A DNA stretch of 64,000 nucleotides from an uncultured Phascolarctobacterium sp. (GCA_947589605.1 CANQBR010000002.1:7361-71360), one strand, 5' to 3'; counted from the first letter of the stretch, positions 1 to 33,142 are shown. Notes: generated by a model from the sequence alone, not told the origin. Numbers and translations: made by a program.

Positions 1-418
1 CCACTCGGATGCCGTCCAGTTCGTGCACCGTGAAGCCGTCCCCCGGCACCGCCCATTTTTCCGCGTTGGCCTTCACTACCCGCAATTTATCGTGACGCCA
101 CAGCACGTCGCCCCTGGCACCGATCGCCAAACAGCTGTTGTGAGGCCTATCTTCATCCAAAAAAGCGCAGCCTAAAAATAAAGTCTCTTCGAATTTTTGG
201 GCCGCTTCGCAAAAGGGGTGGAGCAGGCCGTTTTTTGACGAGGCCAGCTGAAAGGGGAGGTCCGAGCAAATCATCTTGTAACCTTGCAGGGCCATCTCCG
301 GGGTCAGCACCCAGCGGGCGCCGTGTTCGGCGGCGAGTTCCATGCCTTTTAAGATTTTCGCAGCATTTTCTCCTTGAGGGCGGCCGCAAAAAGCAAAATG
401 CAAAAAAGCGATCTTCAT
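1..418 (-). CDS. carbon-nitrogen hydrolase (nitrilase superfamily), N-terminal ~139 codons; continues past the left edge
   Basis: My own minus-strand translation from ATG at 418-416 gives MKIAFLHFAFCGRPQGENAAKILKGMELAAEHGARWVLTPEMALQGYKM... It is absent from the ORF track because there is no stop inside the window. It begins 20 nt after the permease stop. Confidence 0.6.
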   Translation of the reverse strand, partial: MKIAFLHFAFCGRPQGENAAKILKGMELAAEHGARWVLTPEMALQGYKMICSDLPFQLASSKNGLLHPFCEAAQKFEETLFLGCAFLDEDRPHNSCLAIGARGDVLWRHDKLRVVKANAEKWAVPGDGFTVHELDGIRV

Positions 419-437: not shown

Positions 438-1475
438 TCAAAACGCCTGCTTCTGCAAGCGACGCAGCAGGTAGAGAAAATAGGGAGAGCCCAAGAGGGC
501 CGTCATGATGCCCACCCGCACTTCTGCCGGGGCCATGATGACCCGCCCCAAAGAATCGCACAGCACCAAAAAGAGAGCTCCCCCCAAAGCGCTGGCCGGC
601 AGCAGCACCCGATGATCGGGGCCCAGCAGCAACCGCATCATGTGGGGGATGACCAGCCCTACGAAGCCGATGTTGCCGCTGACGCAGACAGAGACGGCGG
701 TGGTGAGAGAGGCCACGGAGAGGAGGGTGAGGCGAAAGGCGGTGACCGGCATGCCCACAGCCTTGGCCTCCGTCTCTCCCAGCACCAAGATGTTGAGGTG
801 CCGGGCCAAGGCCAGCATCACGGCGAGGCCGGCCAAGATGGGGCCGGCTGCCAGATAAACATGCCACCAGCGGCGGTAATCTAAGCCGCCCACCATCCAG
901 AACAGATATTGCTGTATTTTTTGCTCGTTCATAAAGGTCAACAGGCCGGAGGTGACCGCCCCCAGCAAGATGCCCACGGCCACGCCCGCCAAGAGCAGGG
1001 TCATCACTGCGATCTTGCCGTTGCGCATCGATAAGAACACCGTTAAAAACACGGCGCAGATGCTGCCGCAAAAAGCAAAGGCCGGCATTGCGAAATAATT
1101 GCCGGCCGCAAGGCCCAAAGCGATGGAGAGCACGGCCCCCGTGGCGGCGCCGGCGGAGACGCCGATCAGGCCCGGATCGGCCAGGGGATTGCCGAAGATG
1201 CCTTGCATCACAGCACCGGCGGTGGCCAAAGCAGCGCCCACCAAAACGCCCACCAGCATGCGGGGCAGACGTATGTACCAGATCACCGCGAATTGTTCCG
1301 CGGAAAAACGGCTGCCATCAGCGAAGGGCAAATGAAATTGCCGCAGCAAAACGGCCACGGTGTTATCCAAAGGGATGCGTATCTGCCCGAAGGTGAGGGA
1401 GAGGCAGGCTGCTGCCGCCAAAAGAAGAGCCAAGATCAACAAAGCAAGGCGGCTGCGCCGGGAGGAGCTCATCAT
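438..1475 (-). CDS. FecCD/BtuC-family ABC permease (iron-chelate / haem / corrinoid type)
   Basis: Polytopic hydrophobic protein with a FecCD-like C-terminus (GPDHRVLLPASALGGALFLVLCDSLGRVI...GIMTALLGSPYFLYLLRR). Start moved to ATGATG at 1475, with AAGAGG upstream; the track start 1562 adds 29 implausible residues. Confidence 0.85.
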   Translation of the reverse strand: MMSSSRRSRLALLILALLLAAAACLSLTFGQIRIPLDNTVAVLLRQFHLPFADGSRFSAEQFAVIWYIRLPRMLVGVLVGAALATAGAVMQGIFGNPLADPGLIGVSAGAATGAVLSIALGLAAGNYFAMPAFAFCGSICAVFLTVFLSMRNGKIAVMTLLLAGVAVGILLGAVTSGLLTFMNEQKIQQYLFWMVGGLDYRRWWHVYLAAGPILAGLAVMLALARHLNILVLGETEAKAVGMPVTAFRLTLLSVASLTTAVSVCVSGNIGFVGLVIPHMMRLLLGPDHRVLLPASALGGALFLVLCDSLGRVIMAPAEVRVGIMTALLGSPYFLYLLRRLQKQAF

Positions 1476-1533
1476 TTCGTATACCTCTTTATAAAGTGCG
1501 TTCCATATTTGCGATATTTTTCTATTTAACAAA

Positions 1534-1562
1534 ATATTAAAACATTGCCGCACAAAAGTCAA
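1534..1562 (-). promoter_or_regulatory. sigma70-like promoter for the permease operon
   Basis: The minus strand reads TTGACT - 17 nt - TAATAT, about 55 nt upstream of ATG 1475. Confidence 0.55.
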
Positions 1563-1584
1563 GGCTCAAGGCCTTTTCGGCAAA

Positions 1585-1766: not shown

Positions 1767-1872
1767 TTAAATGAGGCGAGGTCCCCGCAAAAGGACGAAA
1801 AAAATTTTTGTGCGAAAAATTTTATTGAGAAGAATTGCTTGCACAGCTGCGAGAGCTTATTGGCAAAAATTC

Positions 1873-1901
1873 TTGACAGCTATTTTTCCGTGTTGTAGAA
1901 T
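1873..1901 (+). promoter_or_regulatory. near-consensus sigma70 promoter
   Basis: TTGACA (1873-1878) - 17 nt - TAGAAT (1896-1901), 30 nt upstream of ATG 1932. RBS GAGGGAGGGAAG. Confidence 0.7.
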
Positions 1902-1931
1902 TTACTTAACTTCACCGAGGGAGGGAAGAAG

Positions 1932-2249
1932 ATGGCACAACATCCCGCAAGCAAGATCCCCGCAGATCCTCATGGGAAAAAACGGTACGAGAGCGCCAAG
2001 CTCCACGCAGAGGCCGCTGCGGCGGCAGGCAAGTCTTCACAAGAGGTCCATGCGATCTTTGACCGTGTGATGGCCTTCGATCCCAAGACCGATGTCTACA
2101 AATTGTCCCCCGAGGGGCCTCACGCCAAATACCGCTCGGCTTTGATCCATGCGCAAAAAGCCATGGCCGCCGGCAAGGGCAGCGACTACGCTCACAGTAT
2201 CTTTGCCAAGATCATGGCAGGGGAGACCTCCGGCTGCGCTCATCACTGA
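1932..2249 (+). CDS. small His-rich protein with an internal duplication and a C-terminal Cys-Ala-His-His; function unknown
   Basis: Strong RBS and promoter. Residues 14-48 and 64-96 are repeats (HGKKRYESAKLHAEAAAAAGKSSQEVHAIFDRVMA vs HAKYRSALIHAQKAMAAGKGSDYAHSIFAKIMA). 9 His in 105 aa. Confidence 0.7.
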   Translation: MAQHPASKIPADPHGKKRYESAKLHAEAAAAAGKSSQEVHAIFDRVMAFDPKTDVYKLSPEGPHAKYRSALIHAQKAMAAGKGSDYAHSIFAKIMAGETSGCAHH

Positions 2250-2330
2250 GGAAGCGGCCCGCAAAAAGGGCAAAATAAAACTGCAGCTCCGAGAAAAACA
2301 GCTCGGTGTTGCAGTTTTTTCTTTTATCGT

Positions 2331-3167
2331 TCATTGCTCTTTGAGGCGTACCGGCAGCGAGACCTCTACGGCGTATTCGGCGGGGGAGAGGGTCAGCCAA
2401 TGATCTTTGAGGGGCAGCACATAGACGTCGCCGCAGACGGTCAGCTCATGGGTGCGGATGAAATCCCGCAGTTTGAGGGCCAAGGCTTCGCCTTGACCGG
2501 TGAAGGTGCCCCTGAGAGAAACGGTGAGGTAAAGACCGGCGGGGCGGCTGCCGTTGGGGACGGGGCCGCCGCTTTCTTCTCTCACGACGGTGTAATAGGC
2601 TTTGGCGGTGAGAGACCGCCGCTTCAAATATTGAACGCTATCGATGAGCCAGCCGGTGGCCTCCGTTTTAAAACGCTGTTTGGAATTGTTGTGGCGGGCG
2701 TAAGCGGTGACCCGCTCTTTGGGAGAAGAGACAGCGGTGATGTCGGTGATATAAAGAGGCTGCTCTTCTTCCCGGCGCAGAGCGATGACGCCCAAGGTCC
2801 GCTCCTCCGTCTTTTGCAGCTTCAAGGCTACTGCCTCGATGAGCTCTTTATCTCGTTGAGCCCGGGCGATGAGCTCGTCGCAGTCTCGGCGGCGGGCTTC
2901 CAAAAGCTCTCGAAAATTTTTCTCTCCCCGCTCCTCTAAATAGCGCCTGATCTGTTTGACAGGCACGCCCAGCTTGCGCAGGTTGAGGATGATCTCCAAG
3001 GTGAGATATTGGCGGATGGAGTAATGGCGGTAATTGTTCTCCGAGATATATTCCGGCACCAACAGTTTGATCCTGTCGTAATAGAGCAGGGTCTGCCGGG
3101 GGATGTCGAAGAGGGCCGCCAGTTCGCCGGCGGTGTAGAAGGCGGTGGGCAAGGGACCGTCGTTCAT
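2331..3167 (-). CDS. MerR-family transcriptional regulator with a C-terminal GyrI-like (effector-binding) domain
   Basis: N-terminal MerR HTH (YTAGELAALFDIPRQTLLYYDRIKLLVPEYISENNYRHYSIRQYLTLEIILNLRKLGVPVKQIRRYL), a coiled-coil linker and a ~150-aa C-terminal domain. Start set to ATG 3167 with GGGAGAG upstream; track start 3188 is TTG. Confidence 0.8.
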   Translation of the reverse strand: MNDGPLPTAFYTAGELAALFDIPRQTLLYYDRIKLLVPEYISENNYRHYSIRQYLTLEIILNLRKLGVPVKQIRRYLEERGEKNFRELLEARRRDCDELIARAQRDKELIEAVALKLQKTEERTLGVIALRREEEQPLYITDITAVSSPKERVTAYARHNNSKQRFKTEATGWLIDSVQYLKRRSLTAKAYYTVVREESGGPVPNGSRPAGLYLTVSLRGTFTGQGEALALKLRDFIRTHELTVCGDVYVLPLKDHWLTLSPAEYAVEVSLPVRLKEQ

Positions 3168-3405
3168 GGGCACAACTCTCCCTCTCAAAGGTTTTATCTG
3201 CGCTCAATTATAACAAAAGCCCTGCCTTTGCGCAAGAAAAGAGAGGCGCCGGGCCAAGAGGCCTCGGCCCCGCATTTTTTTGAAAAAGCCGGCGGCAAAA
3301 GCTCTCGCCTTTCTCGAAAAAAGCGAAGAGAAAAAAGTTCGGCATGAAGGAGCGCCGGCATTTTGTTTTTAGGTCGGCCCAAAAGCTTCGCTCGGGAAAG
3401 TTTCC

Positions 3406-3436
3406 TTGACTGTATAACTGCTATACAGTTTATTAT
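3406..3436 (+). promoter_or_regulatory. MerR-type promoter: -35 TTGACT, 19-nt spacer carrying the dyad CTGTATA-N5-TATACAG, -10 TATTAT
   Basis: TTGACT 3406-3411; spacer 3412-3430 (19 nt); TATTAT 3431-3436; inverted repeat 3410-3416 / 3422-3428. Sits 34 nt upstream of ATG 3470. Confidence 0.65.
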
Positions 3437-3469
3437 AAAACCGATTACTATTTGCGGGAGGCTATCTTT

Positions 3470-4495
3470 ATGAAGCGAAAGGCAGTTTATCCCTTCACGG
3501 CCATCGTGGGGCAGGAAGCTATGAAGCTGGCCCTGATCCTGAATGTCATCGATCCTTCTCTGGGCGGCGTTTTGATCAAAGGAGAGAAGGGCACGGCCAA
3601 GTCTACGGCAGTGAGGGCCTTGGCTGAACTGCTGCCGGCTTTGACGGCGGTGCACGGCTGCCGCTTTCGCTGCGATCCTGCCGTGCCGGAGCATTTTTGC
3701 GACGATTGCGCCGCTCTGGCTGCCGCAGGGCAGCCTCTGCCGGAGGAAAAAATGAAGATGCGGGTAGTAGAACTGCCCGTCAGCGCCACCGAAGACAGAG
3801 TGGTGGGCACTTTGGATATAGAGCACGCCATCAAACACGGAGAGAAAAAATTCGAGCCGGGGCTTTTGGCGGAGGCCAACCGCAATATTTTATACGTAGA
3901 CGAGATCAATCTTTTGGACGATCACGTGGTGGACGTGCTGCTGGATGCGGCGGCCATGGGGGTCAACACGGTGGAGAGAGAGGGAGTGTCCTATTCTCAT
4001 CCGGCCCGCTTCGTGCTGGTGGGCACCATGAACCCGGAGGAAGGAGACATCCGCCCCCAGCTTTTGGATCGCTTCGGCCTTTCGGTGACCGTGACGGGAG
4101 AGCACGAGCCCTCGCAGCGGGTGGAAGTGATCAAACGCCGCTTGGCTTACGAAGAGGACCCGGACGCTTTTTGCCGCCGCTGGGAAAAAGAGCAGACGCA
4201 GTTGGCAGAGCGCATCATGGCGGCTAGGCAGTTGCTGCCCCGAACGGAGACAGACGACGAACTTTTGCTCAAAGCGGCAGAAGTAGCCGTCGCTTTGCAG
4301 GTTGACGGCCACCGGGCCGACATCACTTTGATCAAGACGGCCCTCACCGTCGCCGCTTTTGAGGGCCGCACCCAAGCGACGAAAGAAGATGTGAAGAGGG
4401 CGGCAGCTTTGGTGCTGCCTCATCGCCTGCGCCGCCTGCCCTTTGAAGAGAAAACGGTGGATTGGGACAAAGTAAAAGAAATTTTAGACGCATGA
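3470..4495 (+). CDS. Mg-chelatase ChlI/BchI-like AAA+ ATPase subunit
   Basis: Walker [10 protein letters not shown] and Walker [13 protein letters not shown]. Long colinear BchI-like blocks ([52 protein letters not shown]; [29 protein letters not shown]). ATG 3470 has GGGAGG 9 nt upstream. Confidence 0.9.
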
Positions 4496-4511
4496 AGCGA
4501 GAGACAGAGCG

Positions 4512-6449
4512 ATGAAAAAGTTTGAGGGCTATCCCTTCGCCGCCGTGGTGGGGCAAGAAAAAGTGAAAAAAGCTCTGCTGCTGGTGTTGGTCAACTCCCG
4601 TTGCGGCAGCCTCTTGATCGGCGGACGGCGGGGCACGGCCAAATCGGTGACGGCGCGGGGAGCAGAAGAAGTGGCCCAAGGCCGCCGTTTCTTCACCCTG
4701 CCGCTCAGCATCACGGAAGATATGCTGCTGGGCAGTCTCGATCTGGAGCGGACCTTGCAAAAAGGGGTCAGGGCCTTTGCCCCCGGTCTGCTGAGCCGGG
4801 CCGACGGCAACATCCTCTATGTGGACGATATCAATCTTCTGCGCCGAGAAGTGCTGGCGGCGGTGCAGACCGTCCATGCCGCAGGCGTGAACACAGTGGA
4901 AAGGGAGGGCCTCTCCCACCGTGAAGAAATATCTTTCACGCTCATCGGCACTATGGACCCGGCGGAAGGAACTTTCCCCGGGACCGTGCTGGATCGTTTC
5001 GGCCTCTACGTTGAAACGGAAGACATGACGGACGTAAAGCAGCGGGCCGAAGTGATAAGGCGGGCGCTGAGCTTTGCCGGCGACCCAGGGGCTTTCAGAA
5101 AAAAATTCGCCAAAGAAACGGCTGAGCTGCAGCGGCAGCTGGAGCGGGCGCAGCAGCTTTTGCCTCGGGTGGAAGTGCCCGAGGCGATGTTGGAGCTGAC
5201 TGCGCAAATGTGTGCCCGAGCCCTGTGCGCCGGCCATCGGGCGGAGCTTTATCTTTTAGAAGCGGGCAAAGCGGCGGCGGCTCTGGCCGGCCGCACCTTC
5301 GTGTTGCCCGCCGACTTAGATGAGGCCGCCCTTTTCGTTTTGCCTCATCGCATGGGCCGGTCGCCTCAGGCTCAGCAGCAACTGCAAGAAGAGAACGACG
5401 ACTCAAAAGAAGAAGAGGAAAAGCCAGAAAATAGATCTGAAACTCAAAAGGAAAACGAAGAAGAGAGCGCCCCGCAACTTCCTTCGCAAAACAAAAACAG
5501 GGAAGCGGACGGCTCAAAAGACAAAGAAGATAACGAAAACGAAGAGGAAAAAGAAAAAGAGGAAGATCCACACAGTCAGGAGAGCCCTGCCCCTGCCGAC
5601 GAGACAGCCGCCCCTGATAAAAACTTTCCGCCCCTGCAGCTTTTGGTGGCAGCGGGGCGCAGCCGGCAAGAGCGGCGAGGCAGCGGCAAACGGAGCCTGA
5701 CACGCACCTCTTTGAAGCAGGGCCGCTATGTGCGGGCCGAGCTGCCCGGAGGCGAGGCAGACGACATTGCCTTGGACGCCACCATCCGAGCTGCGGCGCC
5801 TTGGCAGCGGTGGCGGGAGCCCCAAGGCTGCGCCCTCACCGTTTGGCAGAGCGACCTGCGGCAAAAAGTGCGGGAGCAGCGCATCGGCAACACTTTTTTG
5901 TTCGCCGTGGACGCCAGCGGCTCCATGGGCGCTTGGGAGCGGATGAGGGCAGTGAAGGGAGCTGTCTTGCAACTGCTGCGGGAAGCTTATCAAAAGAGGG
6001 ACCGAGTGGGCCTCTTGGCTTTTCGCCGAGACAGGGCAGAGGTGCTGCTGCCCTTCACTCACAGCATCGAGCTGGCTCAAAAGGCGCTGGTGCGGCTGCC
6101 CACCGGAGGAAAAACTCCTTTGGCAGAAGGTCTGACGGCGGCCCTGACTATGATAGCGCAAGGCAATAAAGCGCAAAAAGAACAAGAGCCGGTGCTGATA
6201 TTGGTGACCGACGGCCGGGCCAACGCAAGAAGCGGTGCGACAGAGCCGGTGGCCGCGGCCCTAAAAGCGGCGGAGCGCATTCGCAGGGCCAAGATAAAAG
6301 CGGCGGTCATCGATACGGAGCGGGACTTCATCAAATTGGGCATCGCTCAAAAAGTGGCGGCGGCCATGGGGGCTTCTTATCATCCCCTGAGAAAATTGTC
6401 TCAAGAGGGCGTGCTCCGTATCGTAGAAAACTTAGAAGGCGAGCTGTAA
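4512..6449 (+). CDS. Mg-chelatase ChlD/BchD-like subunit (degenerate AAA+ N-domain, acidic linker, C-terminal VWA/MIDAS)
   Basis: N-domain parallels ChlI but has a degenerate P-loop (GGRRGTAKS). A ~90-aa Glu/Asp/Lys/Pro-rich linker follows. VWA domain carries the MIDAS motif FLFAVDASGSMG. Confidence 0.88.
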   Translation: MKKFEGYPFAAVVGQEKVKKALLLVLVNSRCGSLLIGGRRGTAKSVTARGAEEVAQGRRFFTLPLSITEDMLLGSLDLERTLQKGVRAFAPGLLSRADGNILYVDDINLLRREVLAAVQTVHAAGVNTVEREGLSHREEISFTLIGTMDPAEGTFPGTVLDRFGLYVETEDMTDVKQRAEVIRRALSFAGDPGAFRKKFAKETAELQRQLERAQQLLPRVEVPEAMLELTAQMCARALCAGHRAELYLLEAGKAAAALAGRTFVLPADLDEAALFVLPHRMGRSPQAQQQLQEENDDSKEEEEKPENRSETQKENEEESAPQLPSQNKNREADGSKDKEDNENEEEKEKEEDPHSQESPAPADETAAPDKNFPPLQLLVAAGRSRQERRGSGKRSLTRTSLKQGRYVRAELPGGEADDIALDATIRAAAPWQRWREPQGCALTVWQSDLRQKVREQRIGNTFLFAVDASGSMGAWERMRAVKGAVLQLLREAYQKRDRVGLLAFRRDRAEVLLPFTHSIELAQKALVRLPTGGKTPLAEGLTAALTMIAQGNKAQKEQEPVLILVTDGRANARSGATEPVAAALKAAERIRRAKIKAAVIDTERDFIKLGIAQKVAAAMGASYHPLRKLSQEGVLRIVENLEGEL

Positions 6450-6476
6450 AAAAAGCAGGCAGCGGAGGAGGAAGCG

Positions 6477-7289
6477 ATGAAAAAAATTGCAATCTACGGG
6501 AAGGGCGGCATAGGTAAATCCACGACGGCGGCCAATATCTCGGCGGCTCTCAGCCAACAGGGGCTGCGGGTGTGTCAGATAGGCTGCGACCCTAAAAACG
6601 ATTCCACCCGCCTGCTGCTGGGGCAGCTCTGTCGGCGCACGGTGCTGGACACGGTGCGGGACGGGAAAGAAGTGACCTTGGCCGACGTGGTGCACAGCGG
6701 CTACAACGGCATCAAATGCGTGGAGGCAGGAGGGCCGGAGCCGGGAGTGGGCTGCGCGGGGAGAGGCATCATCGTGGCCTTGGAAAAATTGACGGAGCTG
6801 CAGGCTTTGGACGAGGAAGACGTGCTCATCTACGACGTGCTGGGAGACGTGGTGTGCGGCGGTTTCGCCGTGCCCATCCAGGAAGGTTATGCAACCGATA
6901 TCTACATCGTCACCAGCGGCGAATTGATGAGCCTTTATGCCGCCAACAACATCGCCAAGGGCGTGCGCCGCTTTGCTCTCAGGGGCAGAGCACGGCTGGG
7001 CGGGCTCATCGGCAACAGCCGCAACATGCCCAACGAAAAGGAGTTGTTGGAAGCTTTCGCTCGGCGGCTCAACACTCGCCTTATCGCCTTCATCCCTCGG
7101 GCAGCGGTGGTGAACAGGGCGGAGAACCTGCGGCAGACGGTGCTGCAATATGCCCCAGATGATCCTCAGGCGGAAGTTTATCGGCATTTGGCAGCTCGTC
7201 TTTTGAGCAACGAAGAGTTGACGGTGCCTACTCCTTTGGACTTCGAAGAATTGGAAGACTTGGTGATAAAATATGGCGCTGCAGACTAA
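6477..7289 (+). CDS. NifH-like Fe-protein ATPase (nitrogenase-like, group IV/Nfl type by context)
   Basis: [15 protein letters not shown]-loop. [18 protein letters not shown] and [15 protein letters not shown] contain both [4Fe-4S] Cys ligands. Colinear with canonical NifH along the whole length. Confidence 0.92.
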
Positions 7290-8562
7290 ACGGTACATCA
7301 ATTGGCGCAACAGCTGCAGCTGCAGCATGACCGGCGTGTGGGAAGCTGTGGCCTTCGCAGAGGGAGCGGTGCTGATCTTTCACAGCCCCCGGGCCTGTGC
7401 CCATGTTGCTCGCACTATGGAGATCTATTCTCACTACCGCACTTTGGGAGACCTGCGCCCCGAGACTCTGCGGCCCATCCCCGTCCTCTCCACCCAATTG
7501 ACGGAGAAGCACACTATTTTCGGCGGGGGCGAGCAGCTGGCCGCCTGTCTGCGCTATGCGGCCGAAAAATATAAGCCCCGCTGTATAGCGGTGGCCAATT
7601 CCTGCGTCAGCGGCGTCATCGGCGACGATGTGGAAGCGGTGGGGGCGGAACTGGAAGAAGAGTTGGGCCTGCCGGTGCTGACTGTTAATTGCTACGGCTT
7701 TTTGAACACAGAATATTACGACGGTTATTATGCCATGACAGAGCAGCTCATCCGCCGCTTTTTTCAAAAGCAGCCCAAAGAAATGGGCACGGTGCTGCTT
7801 TTGGGGGACTGCGGCGGTCCTTGGGGCCTTTACGCCGGTGAAGTTCGACGGCTGCTGCAGGCCCTCGGCCTCAAGATCGTCGGTCAATTCCCCGGCTACA
7901 TGGCGGCGGACGAAATGGCTCGGGCGGCTCGGGCAGAGGCGGCGGTGATCTTGGGCGGCCGCGGCGATCTTTACGAAGGTCTGCGAAAGATCGCTCAGCA
8001 ATTAGAGAGGGACTATGCCGTCAAAGCTCTGGGTGCTTTTTATCCCGTAGATCTTCAACAGACGAAGCAGTGGCTCTTGAGCGTGGCCGGCTTTTTCGAC
8101 AAAGAAGAAGAGGGACGGCGGCTCATAGCGGCGGAAGAAGAAAATTTGCAGAGAGCCTTGGGACGTTTCTTGCCGGTGACGGAAGGGCAGAAAGTGCTCC
8201 TTTGTTTGGGGCGGCAATTGGATTATTTCGACCCGGCCACCACATTGGAACTGATCGAACTTTTACATTTGGACCTTTTGGGCGTGGTGCTGCTGGATGC
8301 TTACGAGCCGGCAGAACGGCGGGAAGTGCTGGCCAAAGTGCGGGCGGCGACAGACGCTCCCGTTCACGACACGACTGCGGCAGAAGGACTGTGCGCTCAA
8401 GCTCGGCTGGTGCTCACCACCCACGAACTGCAATATCCCGTGCCCCAACTTTTTTTGCCTATGATACCCGAGGTGGGATACAGCGGCACTCTGCGCCTGC
8501 TGCGGGCGGTCTATCGCCGCCTCTGCAGCCGCAAAGAGGGAGGAGGGCTCACCTATGTCTGA
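7273..8562 (+). CDS. nitrogenase component-1-type oxidoreductase, NifD/BchN-like subunit
   Basis: 429 aa. Cys15/17, Cys42 and Cys111 ([12 protein letters not shown]) have the spacing typical of NifD/BchN cluster ligands. Start overlaps the nifH-like stop by 17 nt. Confidence 0.75.
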
Positions 8563-9895
8563 AAAAGTGCCTTGGAGCGAAGTGTGCCGGCGGCCCGACA
8601 CCTGTGCTTTAACGGGAGCGGCGGCCTTCGCCGCCGGTATCGTCGGAGCGAAGATCTTGGTCAACGGGCCCCTGTGGTGCTATTTTTACGCTCTGCGTTA
8701 TTTGGAGCGCAGTGAGTACCACATGGCTCAAAGGATGCAAAATTCTCAGCCCGACGGCACATCGATAGTGTACGGGACGGAAAAATGTCTCGTCGCCGCT
8801 TTGGAGCGTTTGCAAAAAAGCGGCGGCCCTGCCGAGCTGCTCTTTGTGGAGAACAGCTGCTCCGTGAGCCTCATCGGCGACGATACGGAAGGGATCGTCG
8901 GCAGTCTCGACTTAAACTGTCCCTTCGTGACCATGGATTGCGGCGGGCTCATAGGCGGCTTCGCCGAAGGTTGGAGCAGGGCCGCCGTCCGCACTTTGAG
9001 CAAGCTGAGCTCTGCGGCCCCGGCTCCCGAGCGGAAAAGCTGCCGGCCTCGGCTCAACCTTTTGGGCCTTACCGATTTTTATTTCAACGGCAGGGCGGAC
9101 CGAGAAGAGCTGGTCCGTTTGCTGGAGCTGGCAGGCTACGAGGTGAATTGCATCTGCGGCGCCTCTACCGCAGAAGAGCTGCGATCCATCGCTTCTGCCG
9201 ACTTGAACGTGGTCTGTCACGAAGAACTGGGGCTGGAAGCGGCCCGCTATTTGAACAAACGCTACGGCCTTCCCTATATCAGCCCGGGCCTTCCCTACGG
9301 TTGTCGAGGCAGCGTGGCTTGGTTGGAAAAAGTACACTACGCTCTGCCCTGCCCTCACTTAGAGCGAGCACGGGCGGAAGCGGAGGAGACAGAGGGGCGC
9401 CTCACTGTGTGGGGCAATGAGCTGAGCAGCGTTTGGGGAGAATTGTGGTTCGATAAAGCGTTGGTGGCGGCGCCGGGGACGACGGCCCACTGTGTCGCTC
9501 AAGCCCTGCGTTGCGAGTGGGCCGACTTGGGAGAACTGGCGGTGTTGCCTCGGCAGGCTCTGCAAAACAGCTACTGCGACTGCGCCGATAAATCGCACAG
9601 CGCAGGAGAAGAAGAGGCTGCCTTGCAAGATCTTTGTTCATCCGCCGAAGGGCAGTGCCTTTTGCTTTTGGGAAGCAGCAACGAGAGCATGGAGCTGCGC
9701 AGAGCCGGTCTTTTTGACAGCGCCGTCTGCAACATAGCCCACCCCGTCAGCGACGAAGTGCTCCTCATCGGCGAGCCCTTCATGGGGCTGAGGGGCAGCG
9801 CCCACATGCAGCAGCGGCTGTGGAACGCTTATATCCGCCGGACCTTGGCCTGCGGCGGGCGAGCCGAAGAAAATTTCCGAAAGAATTTCCGATGA
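8555..9895 (+). CDS. nitrogenase component-1-type oxidoreductase, NifK/BchB-like subunit (paralog of the preceding gene)
   Basis: 446 aa. Cys17 (DTCALTG), Cys42 and Cys102 (ENSCSVSLIGDD) mirror the upstream paralog. ATGTCTGA gives an 8-nt overlap with the previous stop. Confidence 0.75.
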   Translation: MSEKVPWSEVCRRPDTCALTGAAAFAAGIVGAKILVNGPLWCYFYALRYLERSEYHMAQRMQNSQPDGTSIVYGTEKCLVAALERLQKSGGPAELLFVENSCSVSLIGDDTEGIVGSLDLNCPFVTMDCGGLIGGFAEGWSRAAVRTLSKLSSAAPAPERKSCRPRLNLLGLTDFYFNGRADREELVRLLELAGYEVNCICGASTAEELRSIASADLNVVCHEELGLEAARYLNKRYGLPYISPGLPYGCRGSVAWLEKVHYALPCPHLERARAEAEETEGRLTVWGNELSSVWGELWFDKALVAAPGTTAHCVAQALRCEWADLGELAVLPRQALQNSYCDCADKSHSAGEEEAALQDLCSSAEGQCLLLLGSSNESMELRRAGLFDSAVCNIAHPVSDEVLLIGEPFMGLRGSAHMQQRLWNAYIRRTLACGGRAEENFRKNFR

Positions 9896-9923
9896 TGATA
9901 GATCTTTTGCGGGGGAGCGAAAA

Positions 9924-12900
9924 ATGAAAGTGCTCTTTTTGACCAATGTGCTCCGCAGTTTGGGGACCATGCGGCAAGCCATGGGCTTTTTACAGCGAGA
10001 GGGCAGTCTGGACGGCAGTTGTTCCGCTTTGTGGGTGACGGAAGCGACGGCTTGGGACGATGCTTGGGCAGCTGAACTGGAAAAGACGGACTTTTTGCTT
10101 TTGCAATGGATGGGGACCGGCCTCGACACTCCCTTTCTGCAGCGGCTGCAGCAGATTTTGCAGCAAAGAGACATCCGTTATTACATCGATGCGGCGGGCA
10201 CGGAAGAAGGAGAATTTTCCAATAAACTTACGGAAGAGCAACTGGACCTGCTCCGGCGCTACTTCCTTTTGGGCGGCGAAAGCAATTTCAAAAATCTGTG
10301 GCTCTGCTGCGCCGCTTTCAGCGGAGCGAAAAATTCTTATGCGCCTCCCGAACCTCTTCCTTGGTGCGGCATCTATCATCCCCGAGCCGCCAAAGTTTAC
10401 ACAGATCTGCAAGAATACGAGGCGGACTTCTGTCGGCCCGGCCTCCCCGCTTTGGGCATCTTCTTCTATCGGGACGAATGGGTGTGGAATGATCTGGCCT
10501 ATCAAAAGGCGCTGGTGGAAGAAGCGGAGCGGCAGGGCCTCAATGCGGTGTGCGTCTTCAGCAACGGCATCCCCCTGCCTGAGCTGGGCATGCCGAGCCT
10601 GCCTCAGGTGTTCGACAAATTCTTTCGCAAAAACGGCGTGCCTTTCATCGACTGTCTCCTCAACACCACCAAGTTCTCTCTCACGGGGAGCGGCGCCCTG
10701 ACCGTTGCTTATTTGCAAGAGCTGGGGGTGCCGGTGCTGGCGGCCTACACATTGATGAAAGATTATAACGAGTGGGCGGAAAACTTTGAAGGGCTGAGCC
10801 CTACGGAGGTGGCCATAGGCGTGAGCATGCCGGAATTCGACGGGGTGCTCCACGGGGTGCCTGTGGCCTGCAAAAAAGTGCTGCCTAACGGTGACGTGTG
10901 CTATCTGCCCATAGCCGAGCGATTGGCGCAGATGGTGAAGAAAGCCAAAAAATGGGCGCTTCTCAGACGCAAACAAAACAGTGAGAAAAAGATCGCTGTC
11001 ATCTTTCATAATTATCCTCCCCGCAACTCCAACATCGGCAGCGCTTTAGGGCTGGACTCCGTCGAAAGCGTCCGCCGTCTGCTGGCGCTTTTAAAAGAAC
11101 GGGGTTATCAAGTGGACCACCTCCCTGCCGACGGCAACGAGCTTATCGCTCAGATAACCGCCAACGCCACCAACGACAAAAATATGTTGGGCAGCCGCCG
11201 CATCGAAGAAGCCATGAAGCTCTCAGCTGCGGCTTACAAAAAATTTTACGAACAACTCCCCGTCAAAACTCAAAACGAATTGAAACGAGATTGGGGCGAA
11301 GCGCCGGGGGAAGTGATGACTGTGGACGACTCCCTCTTGGTGCCTGGCACGGTGAACGGCAATATCTTCATCACCGTGCAGCCGCCCCGCGGCTTCGGCG
11401 AGGACCCGGCCAAGCTCTATCACGACCCCGACTGTGCTCCCACCCATCATTATTTGGCCGTTTACCGCTGGCTGAAGGAAGTGTGGCAGGCGGATGCATT
11501 GCTCCACATCGGCACTCACGGCAGTTTGGAATGGCTGCCGGGGAAAAATGCGGCCCTGAGCGCCGCCTGCTATCCCGATATAGCCCTGGCTCAGTTGCCG
11601 AACATCTATCCCTATCACATGACCATCGTAGGGGAAGGGCTGCAGGCCAAACGGCGGGGCGGCGCCTGCCTCATCGATCATCTTCCCGCTCCCCAGAGCA
11701 GGGCCGGGTCGTACGACGAAACGGAAGAAACGGAAAAATTATTAGATGAATATGCTTATTTTGCTCAAAATAGGCCCGAAGAGCTGCCCCGGGCAGAGCA
11801 GCTGCTGCTGAAAAAGGCCGAGGCAGCCCACCTCACCGACGACGTGCCCTACGATCCGGCCAAACCTTTCAAAGAATACGTTGCGGCTCTGCATAATTAT
11901 CTTTCCGAATTGAAGAGCATGGAAGTGCACGTGGGGCTCCACATTTTGGGCCAGCCGCCGCAAAAAGAGCTGCAGATCGATCAATTGTGGCTGCTGACCC
12001 GCAGAGACAACGGCAAAGTAATGAGCTTGGAAAAGATCATCGCTTCTTTATACGGCGTCACCTGCGAAGAATTGACTGCCCGCAGCGCAGAGATCTATCA
12101 GCCGCTGCAGCTCACTTACGGCCGCTTGGCCGACAAAATTTACGAAGAGGGCCGAGAAGTCCTCCGTTTGCTGCAAGAAGGAGGCTTCACTTCGGCAGCT
12201 GTCGAAAAAGTTTTGGCTCTGCCGCAGTTGACCGGTGCAGAAGCAACTCTTCGCAAAAAAATGAGAGAACTTTGCTTCTACATCAACGAAACGCTCTGCC
12301 CCGCTCTGCAGGCTACGGAGCAAGAAATGAAAAATATGCTGAGAGCTTTGGAAGGGCAGTATGTGGAGCCGGGACCCGGGGGCTCTCCTGCCAGCGCCGG
12401 CTGTGAGCTTTTGCCCAGCGGCCGCAACTTCTACGGCGTAGATCCCCGCAGTCTGCCTACACCGGCGGCGTGGGAGCTGGGGAAAATTTTAGGCGATCAA
12501 GTCATAGAGCGTTTCATCGCCGAAGAAGGGCGCTACCCCGAGAGCGTGGGGCTGGTGCTGTGGGCCGGCAGCAACATGAGGAGCCGAGGCCAATGTGCGG
12601 CTGAATTTTTGTACTTATTGGGCCTGCGGCCCCGCTATCAAAAGGGGAGCCTGCGGGTGACGGGGGTCGATGTCATCCCCTTGGAAGAATTACGCCGCCC
12701 CCGCATCGATGTGGTGGGCCGCATCAGCGGCCTCTTGCGTGACTCTATGCCTTCCGTGGCCGAACTTTTGGACCAAGGGGCGCAGATCGCGGCGTCTTTA
12801 GATGAACCGCCCGAACAAAACTACGTTCGGGCCCACGCTTTAGCCGATGCCGCCGAATTACAAGCAGGCGGTATGAAAAAAGAAGAAGCGTGGCGGCAGG

Positions 12901-13631
12901 CCTGCTATCGTATCTTCGGCGATCCGCCGGGCACTTATGGGGCGGGAGTGCCGGAGCTTTTGGAAGCAAAAAATTGGCAAACAGTGGATGATATAGCCTC
13001 CGTTTATATGCGTTGGGGCGGCCATGCTTACGGGGGCAGAGCCCGGGGCGTATATTTGCCGGAACTTTTTCGCAAACGTTTGAGCAGTGTGGATATCGCC
13101 GTGAAAAACGACGACAATCACGACAACAACATGCTGGCCAGCGACGATTACAACGCTTATCACGGCGGTCTGATCGCCGCGGTGCGCAGTGTGAGGGGCA
13201 AGGCCCCCAAAGGTTACAGCGGCGACAGCAGCGACCGGGGTAAGGTGACTCTGCACAGCGTGCAGGAGCAGGCCAAGCGGCTCTTTCGCAGCGAGGCGAT
13301 CAATCCCAAATTCATCAAAGGAATGATGGAGCACGGCTATAAAGGGGCTGCCGACATGGCCAACATGGTGGCTCACAGTTATCAGTGGGACGCCACCAGC
13401 GGGGTCTTGGAAGATTGGATGTACGAAGGCTACGCCGAAAAATATACCTTCGACCCGAAAGTGCAGGCATGGCTGAAAGAGGTGAACCCCTGGGCCCTGC
13501 AGCGGATGACGGAGGTGCTGTTGGAGGCGGAGCAGCGGGGGCTGTGGAACGCCCGGCCCGAGACCGCCGCCAAATTGCGGGAGTTGTACCTTTCTATGGA
13601 AGGGGACTTGGAGGAACTCAACGATCGATGA
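9924..13631 (+). CDS. CobN/ChlH/HmuS-family large chelatase subunit
   Basis: 1235 aa, the size and architecture typical of CobN-Mg_chel. Blocks such as HFGTHGSLEWLPGK-like (HIGTHGSLEWLPGKN). RBS GGGGGAG. Confidence 0.88.
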   Translation: MKVLFLTNVLRSLGTMRQAMGFLQREGSLDGSCSALWVTEATAWDDAWAAELEKTDFLLLQWMGTGLDTPFLQRLQQILQQRDIRYYIDAAGTEEGEFSNKLTEEQLDLLRRYFLLGGESNFKNLWLCCAAFSGAKNSYAPPEPLPWCGIYHPRAAKVYTDLQEYEADFCRPGLPALGIFFYRDEWVWNDLAYQKALVEEAERQGLNAVCVFSNGIPLPELGMPSLPQVFDKFFRKNGVPFIDCLLNTTKFSLTGSGALTVAYLQELGVPVLAAYTLMKDYNEWAENFEGLSPTEVAIGVSMPEFDGVLHGVPVACKKVLPNGDVCYLPIAERLAQMVKKAKKWALLRRKQNSEKKIAVIFHNYPPRNSNIGSALGLDSVESVRRLLALLKERGYQVDHLPADGNELIAQITANATNDKNMLGSRRIEEAMKLSAAAYKKFYEQLPVKTQNELKRDWGEAPGEVMTVDDSLLVPGTVNGNIFITVQPPRGFGEDPAKLYHDPDCAPTHHYLAVYRWLKEVWQADALLHIGTHGSLEWLPGKNAALSAACYPDIALAQLPNIYPYHMTIVGEGLQAKRRGGACLIDHLPAPQSRAGSYDETEETEKLLDEYAYFAQNRPEELPRAEQLLLKKAEAAHLTDDVPYDPAKPFKEYVAALHNYLSELKSMEVHVGLHILGQPPQKELQIDQLWLLTRRDNGKVMSLEKIIASLYGVTCEELTARSAEIYQPLQLTYGRLADKIYEEGREVLRLLQEGGFTSAAVEKVLALPQLTGAEATLRKKMRELCFYINETLCPALQATEQEMKNMLRALEGQYVEPGPGGSPASAGCELLPSGRNFYGVDPRSLPTPAAWELGKILGDQVIERFIAEEGRYPESVGLVLWAGSNMRSRGQCAAEFLYLLGLRPRYQKGSLRVTGVDVIPLEELRRPRIDVVGRISGLLRDSMPSVAELLDQGAQIAASLDEPPEQNYVRAHALADAAELQAGGMKKEEAWRQACYRIFGDPPGTYGAGVPELLEAKNWQTVDDIASVYMRWGGHAYGGRARGVYLPELFRKRLSSVDIAVKNDDNHDNNMLASDDYNAYHGGLIAAVRSVRGKAPKGYSGDSSDRGKVTLHSVQEQAKRLFRSEAINPKFIKGMMEHGYKGAADMANMVAHSYQWDATSGVLEDWMYEGYAEKYTFDPKVQAWLKEVNPWALQRMTEVLLEAEQRGLWNARPETAAKLRELYLSMEGDLEELNDR

Positions 13632-14644
13632 AAGATAGCCTCGGGCTCGCCCCCTTGAAGCAAGCAGTGCTGAGTTTGAGCGGCCGCTGCAACTATGCCT
13701 GCCGTTATTGCTATGCCTCGGGGCAGAGGAGCGAAGACATGAGCCCCGCAACGGCACGAAAAGCGGTGGAGCTGGCGGCAGGGCAAAAAGAAAAATTCAT
13801 ATTGCAATTCAGCGGCGGCGAACCCTTGTTGGCTCTTCCCGCTCTGCAGGCGGCAGTCATCTATGCGGAAGAAAAAAAGCTCGACTGCGTCATGCAGGTG
13901 CAGACCAATGCAGCTCTTTTGACGGAAGAGATCGCTTTGTGGCTCTTTCGCCATAAAGTGGGGATAGGCGTCAGCCTGGACGGCCGGCCTGCGGTGAACG
14001 ATCGGCTGCGGCGCACGAAAAAGGGCGAAGGCGCCTCTTTCTCCGCTTTGCGGGGGCTGGAAGTGTTGCGACGTTTGGGCATCGGTTGCGGCCTTACCTG
14101 TACGGTGACGAAAGAAAACGTGAACGAGCTGGAAAGGATAGTAGAGCTGGCCTACTTTCTCGGCAACGTGAGAAGATTGGGCTTCGACCTTTTGCGGGCG
14201 CAAGGCAGAGGCCGTGAGGTCTCGCCGCCGTCGCCCCAAGAGGCAGAGGCGGCGATAGAGCGGGTGCGGCGGCGCAACAAAGAGTTGGCGGAGCTCACCG
14301 GCTATGAGATAAAGCTCACCCAAGAAGAAAAAGCTGCGAAGAAAGGCGAGGGACTCCGCCACTGCCCGGCTGTGCGGGGAGAGGCAGTCTTTGTTGCGGC
14401 GGACGGGAGCCTCTACGCCTGTGCCTCTTTCATCGGCGACGAAAAATTTTACATCGGCTGCGCCGAGCGGGGCATCGACGAAAAACTGCGGCGGCAGGCG
14501 ACGGCCGCCTTGCAAAATATGTTGGCCTCTTGTCAACGTTGTCCCGAGCTCGCCGAGTGCGGGGGCGGCTGCGCCGCCCGTTGGCAGCAAGGTGCCTATC
14601 CCGCCGAGTGCGCCTGCAAACGAGCCTTTCGCACAACTTTGTGA
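13628..14644 (+). CDS. radical SAM enzyme with a C-terminal SPASM-type auxiliary cluster domain
   Basis: CNYACRYC (CxxxCxxC) at residues ~22-29, FSGGEPLL, and C-terminal CQRCPELAECGGGCAARW. Start set to ATG 13628, which overlaps the cobN-like stop (ATGA); the track N-terminus (13385) lies inside cobN. Confidence 0.85.
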   Translation: MKDSLGLAPLKQAVLSLSGRCNYACRYCYASGQRSEDMSPATARKAVELAAGQKEKFILQFSGGEPLLALPALQAAVIYAEEKKLDCVMQVQTNAALLTEEIALWLFRHKVGIGVSLDGRPAVNDRLRRTKKGEGASFSALRGLEVLRRLGIGCGLTCTVTKENVNELERIVELAYFLGNVRRLGFDLLRAQGRGREVSPPSPQEAEAAIERVRRRNKELAELTGYEIKLTQEEKAAKKGEGLRHCPAVRGEAVFVAADGSLYACASFIGDEKFYIGCAERGIDEKLRRQATAALQNMLASCQRCPELAECGGGCAARWQQGAYPAECACKRAFRTTL

Positions 14645-15048: not shown

Positions 15049-15110
15049 AAATGATAACAGGTTGCAAAAAACTCTCCGACGTATTAACTAAAAGAGGAGT
15101 GAGGAAAATA

Positions 15111-16691: not shown

Positions 16692-17672
16692 ATGAAAAGA
16701 TCGGCCGCAATAGCGGGACTGCTTTTGGCAGTGTGTGCTCTGCTGGCCTTCGGCTGCGCTCCCCCGTCTCAAGAGCCTGCTCCTCCCGTAAAGGCCGGCA
16801 GCTACAGCGTGACGGACGCTACTGCCCGCAGGCTCACCTTCAAAGAAAAACCGCAGCGCATCGTTTCTTTGAGTATCTCTGCCGATGAGATGCTTTTAGA
16901 TATGGTGGCCTCGGAGCGGATAGCTGCCCTCACCTATTTGGCAGACGAGCCGGGCATCTCTTCCGTGGCTGGGCGGGCCGGCGTTGTGAAGGAGAGGGTG
17001 AAGAGCGGCAGTTTGGAATCGGTGCTGGGGCCGCGGCCCGACTTGGTGCTGGCCCCCGATTGGATGGACGCGGATTTCGTTGAACTGCTGCGCAGCGCCC
17101 ATGTACCCGTTTACGTTTTTAAAACGCCGGGGACGATCGACGGCGTGAAAAAAACGGTGCTGGAGCTGGCGGCGGTGCTGGGAGAAAAAGAGTCCGGGGC
17201 GAAAGTCGCCGCCCGCATGGATGAGGAGCTGGCCTTCGTGAGCTCCCGCGTGGGCGATATCCCCCCTGAAGCTCGCATCGGCGTGATGGCTCTTTCTTAC
17301 ATGGGAGCCATCGGGCTGAAGGGCAGCACCTTCGACGACATCTGCGCCCGGGCCAACGTGCGCAACTTGGTGGGCGACTACGATCTGCCTCCCAACGTGG
17401 TCTTTTCCGAAGAAACTATGGTGAAGCTGGACCCCCAGCTGCTGCTTTTGCCCAGCTGGCGCTACGGCAACGAAGAAGACCCTGGGCAGATGAGAGAAGA
17501 TATTTTGCGCAACCCGGCCTATCAGAGCATCAGGGCGGTGAAGGACAAGAGAGTGGTGCAGATACGGGACAATTATCTGCACAGCACCTCTCACTACATA
17601 GTTTACGCCGTGCGTGAGCTGGCCGAGGCCGCTTACCCCGAACGCTTCAAAAATGTCGACGCTGAAAAATAA
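16692..17672 (+). CDS. ABC transporter periplasmic substrate-binding protein, BtuF/FhuD/haem-binding class (cluster A-2)
   Basis: Signal/lipobox-like N-terminus (LLAFGCAP). RIVSLSISADEMLLDMVASERIAALTYLAD, typical of the Peripla_BP_2 family. Confidence 0.8.
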   Translation: MKRSAAIAGLLLAVCALLAFGCAPPSQEPAPPVKAGSYSVTDATARRLTFKEKPQRIVSLSISADEMLLDMVASERIAALTYLADEPGISSVAGRAGVVKERVKSGSLESVLGPRPDLVLAPDWMDADFVELLRSAHVPVYVFKTPGTIDGVKKTVLELAAVLGEKESGAKVAARMDEELAFVSSRVGDIPPEARIGVMALSYMGAIGLKGSTFDDICARANVRNLVGDYDLPPNVVFSEETMVKLDPQLLLLPSWRYGNEEDPGQMREDILRNPAYQSIRAVKDKRVVQIRDNYLHSTSHYIVYAVRELAEAAYPERFKNVDAEK

Positions 17673-18336: not shown

Positions 18337-18351
18337 GGGACGGTGGCGAAG

Positions 18352-33117: not shown

Positions 33118-33142
33118 ACGTTGCGCAAAATTTTAAGATTTT

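Follow-up and report, generated by a model that had tools for sequence, protein, structure and literature searches.

A 64,000-nucleotide stretch of the genome of an uncultured Phascolarctobacterium sp. (Negativicutes; GCA_947589605.1, CANQBR010000002.1:7361-71360), hereafter the window, carries on its + strand a seven-gene operon (3470-14644) in which a three-subunit class I chelatase is joined to a nitrogenase-like (Nfl) reductase, NflHDK, and to a radical-SAM enzyme with a SPASM domain. We propose, with a probability of roughly 0.5, that this operon supplies the cytoplasmic enzymes at the core of a cobamide-repressed locus for the salvage of corrinoid-type tetrapyrroles in Negativicutes.

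According to this proposal, a corrinoid-type macrocycle would be imported by a TonB-dependent receptor, periplasmic binding proteins and a BtuCD-like ATP-binding cassette (ABC) importer. The NifH-type ATPase NflH would feed low-potential electrons to NflDK, which would reduce the imported macrocycle or its metal centre. CobN/ChlI/ChlD would spend ATP to insert cobalt, the SPASM radical-SAM enzyme may tailor a side chain, and the product would join the normal cobamide route together with neighbouring CbiZ, an amidase and, in some species, CobA. Cobamide would shut off expression by riboswitch in most lineages, and a ligand-sensing MerR regulator would act in most Phascolarctobacterium, including the strain of the window. 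We infer the substrate, the direction in which the chelatase works and the order of the steps. As substrates we consider corrinoids that are metal-free or oxidised, or else early precursors in oxidised form, of the uroporphyrin III or sirohydrochlorin type.

The operon and its seven genes

The genes were taken from an open reading frame (ORF) listing and from hidden Markov model (HMM) scans (Pfam, NCBIfam), which agree with the gene order and domain assignments first given in a preliminary description of this DNA. All seven lie on the + strand. The first two encode a ChlI-like AAA+ motor subunit of a class I chelatase (3470-4495; AAA_lid_2, Mg_chelatase; TIGR02030, 452 bits) and a ChlD-like subunit composed of an AAA-like domain, an acidic linker and a VWA domain with a DxSxS metal-ion-dependent adhesion site (MIDAS) (4512-6449; VWA_2, E = 2e-15). 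They are followed by NflH, a NifH-type ATP-dependent [4Fe-4S] Fe protein (6477-7289; Fer4_NifH, 360 bits, E = 8.5e-108), NflD, a NifD/E-like subunit of the catalytic component (7273-8562; Oxidored_nitro, E = 3e-53), and its NifK/N-like partner NflK (8555-9895; Oxidored_nitro, E = 1.6e-41). The CobN-type large chelatase subunit (9924-13631; CobN-Mg_chel, 1242 bits) and the radical-SAM enzyme, whose SPASM domain would hold two auxiliary clusters (13628-14644; Radical_SAM, E = 2.8e-16), complete the set.

Recomputed from the gene coordinates, the junctions are +16, +27, -17, -8, +28 and -4 nucleotides, identical to those reported before. The + strand terminator-like matches inside the operon are all weak, in keeping with the reported lack of a recognisable internal terminator; between 1500 and 19800, 36 terminator-like matches were counted compared with 26.5 +/- 6.2 in shuffled sequence. 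The operon start had to be moved: position 3406, given earlier, is the first base of a -35 hexamer (TTGACT) and not a start codon, and the first gene begins at ATG 3470, preceded by the ribosome-binding site GGGAGG. The source genome bears out the diderm-Firmicute origin that had been proposed from gene content.

Corrinoid markers and regulation

Relatives were collected by a scan of one genome per species, which gave at least 80 loci (designated by L numbers), 37 of them with full 10-kb flanks, and the ORFs of all loci were clustered. Eight species have a cobalamin riboswitch (RF00174, 85-122 bits) shortly before the Nfl genes or the operon to which these belong. They immediately precede nflH in Anaerospora (L054), Sporomusa ovata (L074), a member of the Veillonellaceae (L079) and one Phascolarctobacterium (L039); in two Selenomonas (L058, L072) they stand before an operon of the order binding protein/radical SAM-ChlI-ChlD-(CbiZ)-CobN-NflHDK, and in Pelosinus (L053) and Schwartzia succinivorans (L055) before CbiK-Nfl. 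In the latter species a ZMP/ZTP riboswitch (61 bits; 12656-12736 of L055) was also seen, immediately after nflK and before a gene for a 427-amino-acid protein.

CbiZ (PF01955, E = 1e-58) is encoded in 22 loci and between genes of the cluster in L033, L040, L053, L063, L071 and L072, with the arrangements ChlD-CbiZ-CobN (Selenomonas noxia, S. infelix), CobN-CbiZ (L033, L040) and NflK-CbiZ-CobA (Pelosinus). In L001, from a rabbit-gut Phascolarctobacterium whose NflD is 91% identical to that of the window, cbiZ (E = 7e-58) is two genes downstream of the BtuC-like gene, the stretch that corresponds to the sequence just beyond the window edge. The order in L001 is TIM barrel <- CbiZ <- CN hydrolase <- BtuC, and judged by this synteny cbiZ and the gene for the triosephosphate isomerase (TIM)-type barrel should sit just outside the window as well. 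CbiK and the corrinoid adenosyltransferase CobA/BtuR adjoin the Nfl genes in some loci. Because riboswitches precede the Nfl operon in eight species, and because CbiZ, CobA and CbiK are encoded in or beside it, we favour a corrinoid rather than haem as the imported tetrapyrrole.

Haem iron salvage of the Hmu type, in which haem is imported, its iron removed by the CobN-like protein and the porphyrin then reduced and modified, is consistent with the TonB/ABC context and with receptors and ATPases that score equally on haem models. The carriers include oral Selenomonas and gut Phascolarctobacterium, in whose habitats haem is available. The eight cobalamin riboswitches and the presence of CbiZ, CobA and CbiK in the operons speak against it, as does a large subunit that is CobN-type and not HmuS-type: at 1235 amino acids, against 1463 in HmuS, it has no room for the Met-rich insertion of the latter. 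Nor did any iron-regulation element come to light, although no search was aimed at one. We consider haem salvage very unlikely. The preliminary description had suggested anaerobic salvage with dechelation of an imported haem or corrinoid; of this idea, salvage of an imported tetrapyrrole fits the uptake context, haem is disfavoured by the corrinoid markers and dechelation by the complete ChlI/ChlD motor described below.

In the window and in L001 a MerR regulator holds the place of the riboswitch, and L001 yielded no cobalamin riboswitch. The regulator gene of the window is divergent from the operon (2331..3167, - strand, start ATG 3167; MerR_1, E = 1e-13, residues 18-86), and a MerR gene is found at the corresponding position in 34/80 loci (20/37 with full flanks). 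Its C-terminal domain of ~170 amino acids is putatively ligand-binding and resembles GyrI/BmrR by eye, a likeness that has no HMM confirmation. A CarH-like B12-binding domain was considered and rejected, as Pfam and NCBIfam detect the helix-turn-helix alone.

The promoter of the operon, as read from the sequence (3406-3436, + strand), has the -35 hexamer TTGACT (3406-3411) and a -10 hexamer TATTAT (3431-3436) at a spacing of 19 nucleotides, and the spacer holds the perfect palindrome ACTGTATA-N5-TATACAGT (3409-3429). This layout of a -35 element, a 19-nucleotide spacer with palindrome and a -10 element is typical of MerR-controlled promoters. A palindrome of the same type, ACTATATA-N5-TATATAGT, lies upstream of nflH in L026-L029, and one of identical type occurs in L001. 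The regulator is swapped within the genus: Phascolarctobacterium UMGS706 (L039) has its riboswitch at 8905-9079 and no MerR gene there, and most other Phascolarctobacterium, including that of the window (2331-3436), have the divergent MerR regulator and a conserved palindromic putative operator at this place.

Riboswitch-controlled corrinoid salvage loci of the known kind (BtuBFCD with CbiZ or CbiR; PMC7733943) share with the Nfl loci the TonB-dependent receptor, the binding protein, the BtuC-like permease, CbiZ and the cobalamin riboswitches. In the searchable literature we found no salvage locus described with a nitrogenase-like reductase, a class I chelatase or a SPASM radical-SAM enzyme. 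A full-text literature search, which subscription-only papers lie beyond, likewise returned no paper describing the cluster.

A complete class I chelatase and a SPASM radical-SAM enzyme

The class I chelatase set is complete. The ChlI-like protein has a Walker A motif (GEKGTAKST) and a Walker B motif, the ChlD-like protein has a VWA domain with the MIDAS motif DASGSMG, and the large subunit is of the CobN/ChlH type. The latter, a predicted cobaltochelatase, clears the cut-off of the cobN equivalog TIGR02257 (909.8 compared with 822 bits); among proteins in the PDB it matches CobN (7c6o) with 697 bits, ChlH with 532 and HmuS with 376 (in two stretches). In these respects the system resembles the CobNST and CobN-ChlID cobaltochelatases, with a large subunit over the CobN cut-off and complete motor subunits. 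It differs from them in being carried by anaerobes, in which CbiK and CbiX are the canonical cobalt chelatases (PMC6461909), and in that its genes share an operon with an Nfl reductase and import genes. The ChlI-like protein also contains, at residues 64-80, a four-cysteine insertion (CRFRC-x8-CDDC), a possible binding site for a metal or cluster.

For HmuS of Bacteroidota, de-chelation of haem has been shown by experiment (PMC12583661), so the preliminary description had correctly named it as a dechelatase of the CobN family. Like the protein studied here, HmuS belongs to the CobN superfamily and is encoded among genes for TonB-dependent uptake of tetrapyrroles in anaerobes of the gut and mouth (PMC12583661). 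It is membrane-bound, NADH-dependent and 1463 amino acids long, has a Met-rich insertion and binds haem through Met79 and His254; the two proteins were compared here by score and length. The published work on HmuS did not include the AAA+ motors that go with CobN and ChlH (PMC12583661), in contrast to the situation of the CobN-like protein of the window, which is nearer to CobN and has its ChlI/ChlD motor. Since this motor is complete and HmuS was examined without motors, we favour metal insertion over removal.

The distribution of chelatases points in the same direction. Of the five near-full loci without CobN in the fetched stretch, four carry CbiK instead, so that the Nfl proteins seem to need a cobalt chelatase as partner, whichever its class; as CbiK stands in for CobN in most CobN-less loci, this again favours insertion. 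In the Sporomusa ovata locus (L074, 6559-8364), three small ORFs with short stretches 35-65% identical to CobN lie just upstream of the riboswitch that precedes nflH, with CbiK genes nearby; these look like remnants of a decayed cobN.

Removal of the metal is at the centre of an alternative in which the locus harvests cobalt: CbiZ, the amidase and the TIM barrel would strip imported corrinoids of no use to the cell, NflHDK (with a double-cubane reductase in some species) would reduce the ring or the cobalt, CobN/ChlID would de-chelate, and CbiK would reuse the cobalt. Riboswitch control suits a supply of cobalt as well as it suits salvage, HmuS provides a precedent for de-chelation in the superfamily, and the second strong ATP-driven reductase encoded after nflK in L074 and L015 suggests deep reduction. 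In addition, CN hydrolase and CbiZ could yield the a,c-diamide form that CobN recognises. HmuS, however, was examined without motors of the ChlI/ChlD or CobS/CobT type, whereas the CobN-like protein here has a complete one and is much nearer to true CobN than to HmuS, and remodelling by the co-located CbiZ would be far cheaper than destruction of the ring. We regard cobalt harvesting as unlikely; reductive dismantling of the corrin ring for recovery of cobalt, the mirror version of our proposal, would be equally new.

The chelatase and the reductase might instead replace steps of de novo anaerobic cobamide synthesis, for example ring reduction and cobalt insertion, with the transporters merely gathered into a B12 regulon. 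Riboswitch control is compatible with this, as are CbiK and CobA beside the Nfl genes, and the synthesis of F430 and of chlorophyll likewise pairs a chelatase with an Nfl reductase (PMC13474568). Yet the cluster is patchy in Negativicutes, with no Veillonella species genome among the 80 loci, most loci have genes for import scattered between those for the enzymes, and the ligand-sensing MerR of most Phascolarctobacterium is more typical of induction by a substrate. A biosynthetic replacement thus also appears unlikely to us.

The radical-SAM enzyme has the CX3CX2C motif at C21/C25/C28 and the C-terminal SPASM motif CX2CX5CX3C at C302/C305/C311/C315. It scores highest with PapB (128 bits, cut-off 340) and CteB (5wgg, 77 bits). 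Assignment as AhbC, AhbD or NirJ was rejected, with scores of 77 (cut-off 650), 68 (500) and 60 (515) bits, respectively.

The nitrogenase-like proteins NflH, NflD and NflK

The Nfl proteins were placed by HMM cut-offs, sequence matches in the PDB and fold matches rather than by a reference tree. NflH has the P-loop, the switch regions and the cluster cysteines C93 and C127. It narrowly misses the cut-offs of CfbC (378.8 bits, cut-off 402) and NifH (378.3 bits, cut-off 394) and is under those of BchL (225 bits, cut-off 345) and BchX (177, 331); its best solved relative is NifH of C. pasteurianum (324 bits, compared with 274 for MarH and 174 for BchL). NflD and NflK are far under every curated Nif, Vnf, Anf, NifEN, Bch and CfbD cut-off of the NCBIfam equivalogs. 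For NflD the NifD model gives 90 bits (cut-off 653), NifE 109 (505), NifK 45 (427) and CfbD (TIGR03282) 43 (268); NflK has no match to the NifK model at E <= 0.001, and on the D/K components BchN reaches 46 bits (cut-off 420), BchB 86 (490) and BchZ 36 (529). For none of the three proteins was membership of the Nif, Bch or Cfb families found.

The cysteines C17, C42 and C111 of NflD are kept at 99-100% in 73 family members and C17, C42 and C102 of NflK at 100% in 69. From motif context and alignment these three plus three residues would correspond to ligands of a P-cluster-type cluster, the equivalence to C62, C88 and C154 of NifD being drawn from the motifs HSPxxC and NSCxxGxIGDD and from alignment to MarD. 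The cysteine that binds the iron-molybdenum cofactor (FeMo-co) or L-cluster (Cys275 equivalent) is absent from NflD in the alignment to MarD, with ILGGRGD where MarD has GFCY. His384 of NflD, within the conserved triad T383-H384-E385, is 95% conserved and would be a candidate counterpart of the FeMo-co ligand His442 of NifD, being at a similar distance from the C-terminus. In the AlphaFold model of NflD (predicted local distance difference test, pLDDT, 83), the closest folds are MarD, NifD and NifE, with template-modelling (TM) scores of 0.62-0.67 at 17-23% identity; the best is MarD (9fmg_A, TM 0.66), and the top 50 do not include dark-operative protochlorophyllide reductase (DPOR). The picture is one of an electron-transfer cluster beside an empty cofactor pocket, as in substrate-reducing homologues. 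Since a P-cluster-type cluster would be present without a FeMo-co/L-cluster site, we propose that the pocket may be free for an organic substrate.

The methylthio-alkane reductase MarHDK (Group IV-C) includes the nearest solved relative of NflD (98.6 bits, TM 0.66) and likewise has H, D and K components with P-cluster cysteines. It is 22-23% identical, has a catalytic-cluster cysteine in MarD (mar2/L-type) that NflD lacks, and belongs to sulfur assimilation, in contrast to the context of corrinoid uptake seen here. CfbCD with CfbA, of F430 synthesis (Group IV-B), similarly combine a NifH-type ATPase, a NifD-like partner and a chelatase acting on a metallated tetrapyrrole; CfbD, however, is a homodimer with a simple [4Fe-4S] cluster, whereas separate D and K proteins with six P-cluster-type cysteines are encoded here, and the Cfb chelatase is of class II and found in methanogens, in contrast to the class I enzyme of these bacteria. 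DPOR and chlorophyllide oxidoreductase (COR) with Mg-chelatase (Group V) also unite a class I chelatase with an ATP-driven Nfl ring reductase in one pathway, but the Bch models of the D/K type score 36-86 bits (cut-offs 420-529) and phototrophy genes are lacking here. The Group VI Nfl of Elusimicrobia was proposed to act on a tetrapyrrole and has radical-SAM neighbours (bioRxiv 10.1101/765248), and that paper mentions no chelatase. Of the six P-cluster cysteines it keeps no more than four, and its NflH is only ~40% identical to NifH (PMC13474568), unlike the six cysteines and very NifH-like NflH of the window. A 2026 review lists Groups IV-D, IV-E and VI as uncharacterised and mentions no chelatase- or cobamide-linked bacterial clade (PMC13474568). 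The nearest conceptual precedent is an earlier suggestion for methanogens, in which CobN-like chelatases would work together with Nfl proteins to make F430 (PMC3087415). Nothing ties the locus to biosynthesis of F430 or of (bacterio)chlorophyll, the latter having been invoked at first for its logic, and the idea of a tetrapyrrole pathway beyond the known ones still stands.

One such pathway, the first of two possibilities named in the preliminary description, would start from a tetrapyrrole, either imported or endogenous, and turn it into a new cofactor, a reduced porphinoid with cobalt (or nickel), perhaps for use when cobamide is scarce. A chelatase, an Nfl reductase and a radical-SAM enzyme are the template of F430 and bacteriochlorophyll synthesis (PMC13474568; PMC3087415), and repression by cobamide is what B12-independent substitutes typically show. 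None of the loci encodes a candidate client enzyme, though, nor is there any Cfb-type amidotransferase or ligase among the locus families, and CbiZ and CobA act on true corrinoids; we judge a new cofactor quite unlikely.

NflHDK could alternatively serve reductive activation only, as an ATP-driven cob(II)/cob(III) reductase that hands cob(I) to CobA so that CbiZ, which needs an adenosylated substrate, can act. The order CbiK-NflD-NflK-CbiZ-CobA in L053 fits such a role, and activases of the RACo and RamA type are precedents for ATP-coupled reduction of corrinoid cobalt. Flavodoxin or ferredoxin is enough in other bacteria, and the near-constant chelatase partner and the radical-SAM enzyme would be left unexplained; this explanation seems highly improbable.

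A second set of ATP-driven reductase genes lies directly after nflK in S. ovata (L074, 12660-16484), under the same riboswitch, and in L015 (15717-19549). It comprises a 284-290-amino-acid protein, a NapH-like membrane ferredoxin, a double-cubane-cluster-type reductase (246.8 bits, cut-off 350) and an activator ATPase of the BcrAD/BadFG type. This puts two ATP-coupled strong reductases into one cobamide-regulated operon of S. ovata.

Conservation across Negativicutes

The carriers of the cluster are Phascolarctobacterium, Acidaminococcaceae, Selenomonas, Schwartzia, Megamonas, Mitsuokella, Centipeda, Pelosinus, Anaerospora, Sporomusa and Veillonellaceae. Separate genes for NflD and NflK are present in 77/80 loci and in all 37 with full flanks, and NflH in 66/80 (30/37). 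The other operon members follow with 56/80 loci for CobN (33/37), 42/80 for the radical-SAM enzyme (26/37), 26/80 for ChlI (17/37) and 18/80 for ChlD (11/37). For components of uptake the counts are 60/80 for the binding protein (33/37), often in two to three copies, 50/80 for the BtuC-like permease (32/37), 26/80 for the TonB-dependent receptor (16/37) and 23/80 for the ABC ATPase (13/37). CbiZ (16/37 with full flanks), the AP-endonuclease-2 TIM barrel (17/80; 11/37), the CN hydrolase (16/80; 13/37) and a small His/Ala-rich protein (15/80; 10/37) are found in fewer loci. Membership persists while the gene order differs between lineages, which argues for the cluster as a functional unit. The survey of co-occurrence that had been suggested shows NflDK in the company of CobN, the radical-SAM gene and ChlI. 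The operon, first called an orphan, is conserved in at least 80 species of Negativicutes as part of a locus for TonB/ABC uptake. Families like NifB, NifE or NifN are absent from the conserved neighbours of the Nfl loci.

The NflD family is small and has sharp limits: at E <= 1e-30, a set of 1.84 billion proteins contains only 46 representative clusters. Its hundreds of close relatives include named members exclusively from Negativicutes (Phascolarctobacterium, Acidaminococcaceae, Pectinatus), and given this narrow distribution we regard the Nfl cluster as accessory and not core. Cluster look-ups of the sister groups returned metagenome proteins almost exclusively. Phascolarctobacterium succinatutens has a second, distant NflD-like paralogue (P0157 / P0285) that is 30% identical to NflD of the window and belongs to a cluster of 1367 sequences. 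L028 and L053 contain an extra NflD/K-like gene, the copy in L053 with a cobalamin riboswitch of its own (14420-14602). Loci near-identical to those of P. succinatutens occur in bins labelled Escherichia coli, Segatella copri, Bacteroides, Ruminococcus or Duodenibacillus (L021, L017, L020, L041, L043, L008), most likely because of mis-binning rather than gene transfer.

Evidence weighing against corrinoid salvage

Several observations count against the proposed salvage of corrinoids. No riboswitch was found in the window at the Rfam gathering thresholds or by a permissive scan of 1450-3500, and for this reason cobamide control of the window operon is deduced from its relatives, and regulation within the window would fall to the MerR protein alone. 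Binding proteins, receptors and the ATPase fit B12 and haem models about equally (NCBIfam, PDB). The radical-SAM enzyme is at least as similar to peptide maturases as to the tetrapyrrole enzymes AhbC, AhbD and NirJ. The alternation of CbiK and CobN is not strict, as L054 has CbiK and ChlI/ChlD and, where the stretch ends, what weakly resembles the start of CobN. CbiZ-type remodelling requires neither a reductase nor a chelatase. For the substrate of the salvage module there are candidates only, and no natural abundance of metal-free or oxidised corrinoids is known. Lastly, the TIM-barrel neighbour could not be assigned to CbiR (NF041277, cut-off 105): the L063 member scores 21.7 bits and that of L001 has no match, leaving membership in the AP_endonuc_2 superfamily (29.6 bits), to which CbiR belongs (PMC7733943).

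Flanking genes of the window

The operon is embedded in a TonB/ABC uptake locus, flanked as it is by a permease, a binding lipoprotein and ExbB/ExbD/TonB. Upstream, on the - strand, the window begins within a gene for an amidase-type carbon-nitrogen hydrolase (2..418), of which the N-terminal 139 codons remain; they are 88% identical to the 253-amino-acid CN_hydrolase of L001. It is followed by a BtuC-like ABC permease of the FecCD family (438..1562, - strand; Pfam FecCD, E = 1.4e-95). BtuC is the best NCBIfam match of this permease at 298.7 bits, under the cut-off of 461, and orthologues of 60-80% identity are encoded inside the Nfl operon in the 50 loci counted above. The long non-coding stretch upstream of the BtuC-like gene contains a 17-nucleotide unit (consensus AGTCGCTTGAAAAAGGC) repeated 7.3 times in tandem (1620-1747). 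Between this stretch and the MerR gene, the + strand encodes the small protein of 105 amino acids (1932..2249) with two His/Ala-rich repeats and a C-terminal CAHH, whose family occurs beside the cluster in the 15 loci already mentioned. It has no Pfam or NCBIfam match, and as a guess it might be a carrier or helper for a metal such as cobalt. In AT-rich relatives the ORF caller took an antisense ORF (family f15) in place of this gene.

Downstream, the + strand encodes an OmpH/Skp-like envelope-associated protein (15051-15536), an adhesin-E-like lipoprotein (15568-16125) and a conserved protein of 165 amino acids (16148-16645); homologues of the latter two recur near the cluster in other loci, and one relative of the 165-amino-acid protein has a weak YbjN match. 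Next come a periplasmic substrate-binding lipoprotein of the B12/haem/siderophore ABC class (16692..17672; Peripla_BP_2), ExbB (17704-18336), ExbD (18343-18768) and TonB (18755-19501), likewise on the + strand. From 20 to 64 kb the window holds housekeeping genes, for example those for an MsbA-like exporter, a ClpC-like ATPase, RadA, glutamate dehydrogenase and RNase E/G, and no cbi or cob genes. The G+C content falls locally from ~0.56 to 0.44 at 32001-34000, over a family-8 glycosyltransferase gene (31910-32956) that is possibly a horizontally acquired envelope-glycan gene.

Possible implications for cobamide metabolism in gut and oral Negativicutes

What we rate as new is the proposed recruitment of a nitrogenase-like reductase to cobamide metabolism. 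We tentatively suggest that NflHDK is the first such enzyme, which would use ATP to reduce an imported macrocycle before a class I cobaltochelatase loads it with cobalt, although this more specific claim is less probable than the salvage role of the locus as a whole. Most nitrogenase-like clades have no assigned function, and gene context has given little beyond links to sulfur for Group IV and to tetrapyrroles for Group VI (PMC13474568). Here, a Group-IV-like enzyme with a full set of putative P-cluster ligands and without the catalytic-cluster cysteine has an unusually informative context of riboswitches, a cobaltochelatase, CbiZ and corrinoid-type importers. This context makes the function of the locus directly testable.

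The cluster is common in human gut and oral Negativicutes, and one Phascolarctobacterium cluster alone comprises thousands of metagenome sequences. The locus offers a testable hypothesis for the CobN homologues of anaerobes, a question raised both by the work on HmuS (PMC12583661) and by cobamide genomics (PMC6461909). Salvagers of tetrapyrrole precursors are documented, mostly among Firmicutes (PMC6461909). If our proposal is true, gut and oral anaerobes would have gained another way into B12, one that salvages the ring and not the lower ligand, and the sharing of B12-type cofactors in microbial communities would have a further enzymatic layer.

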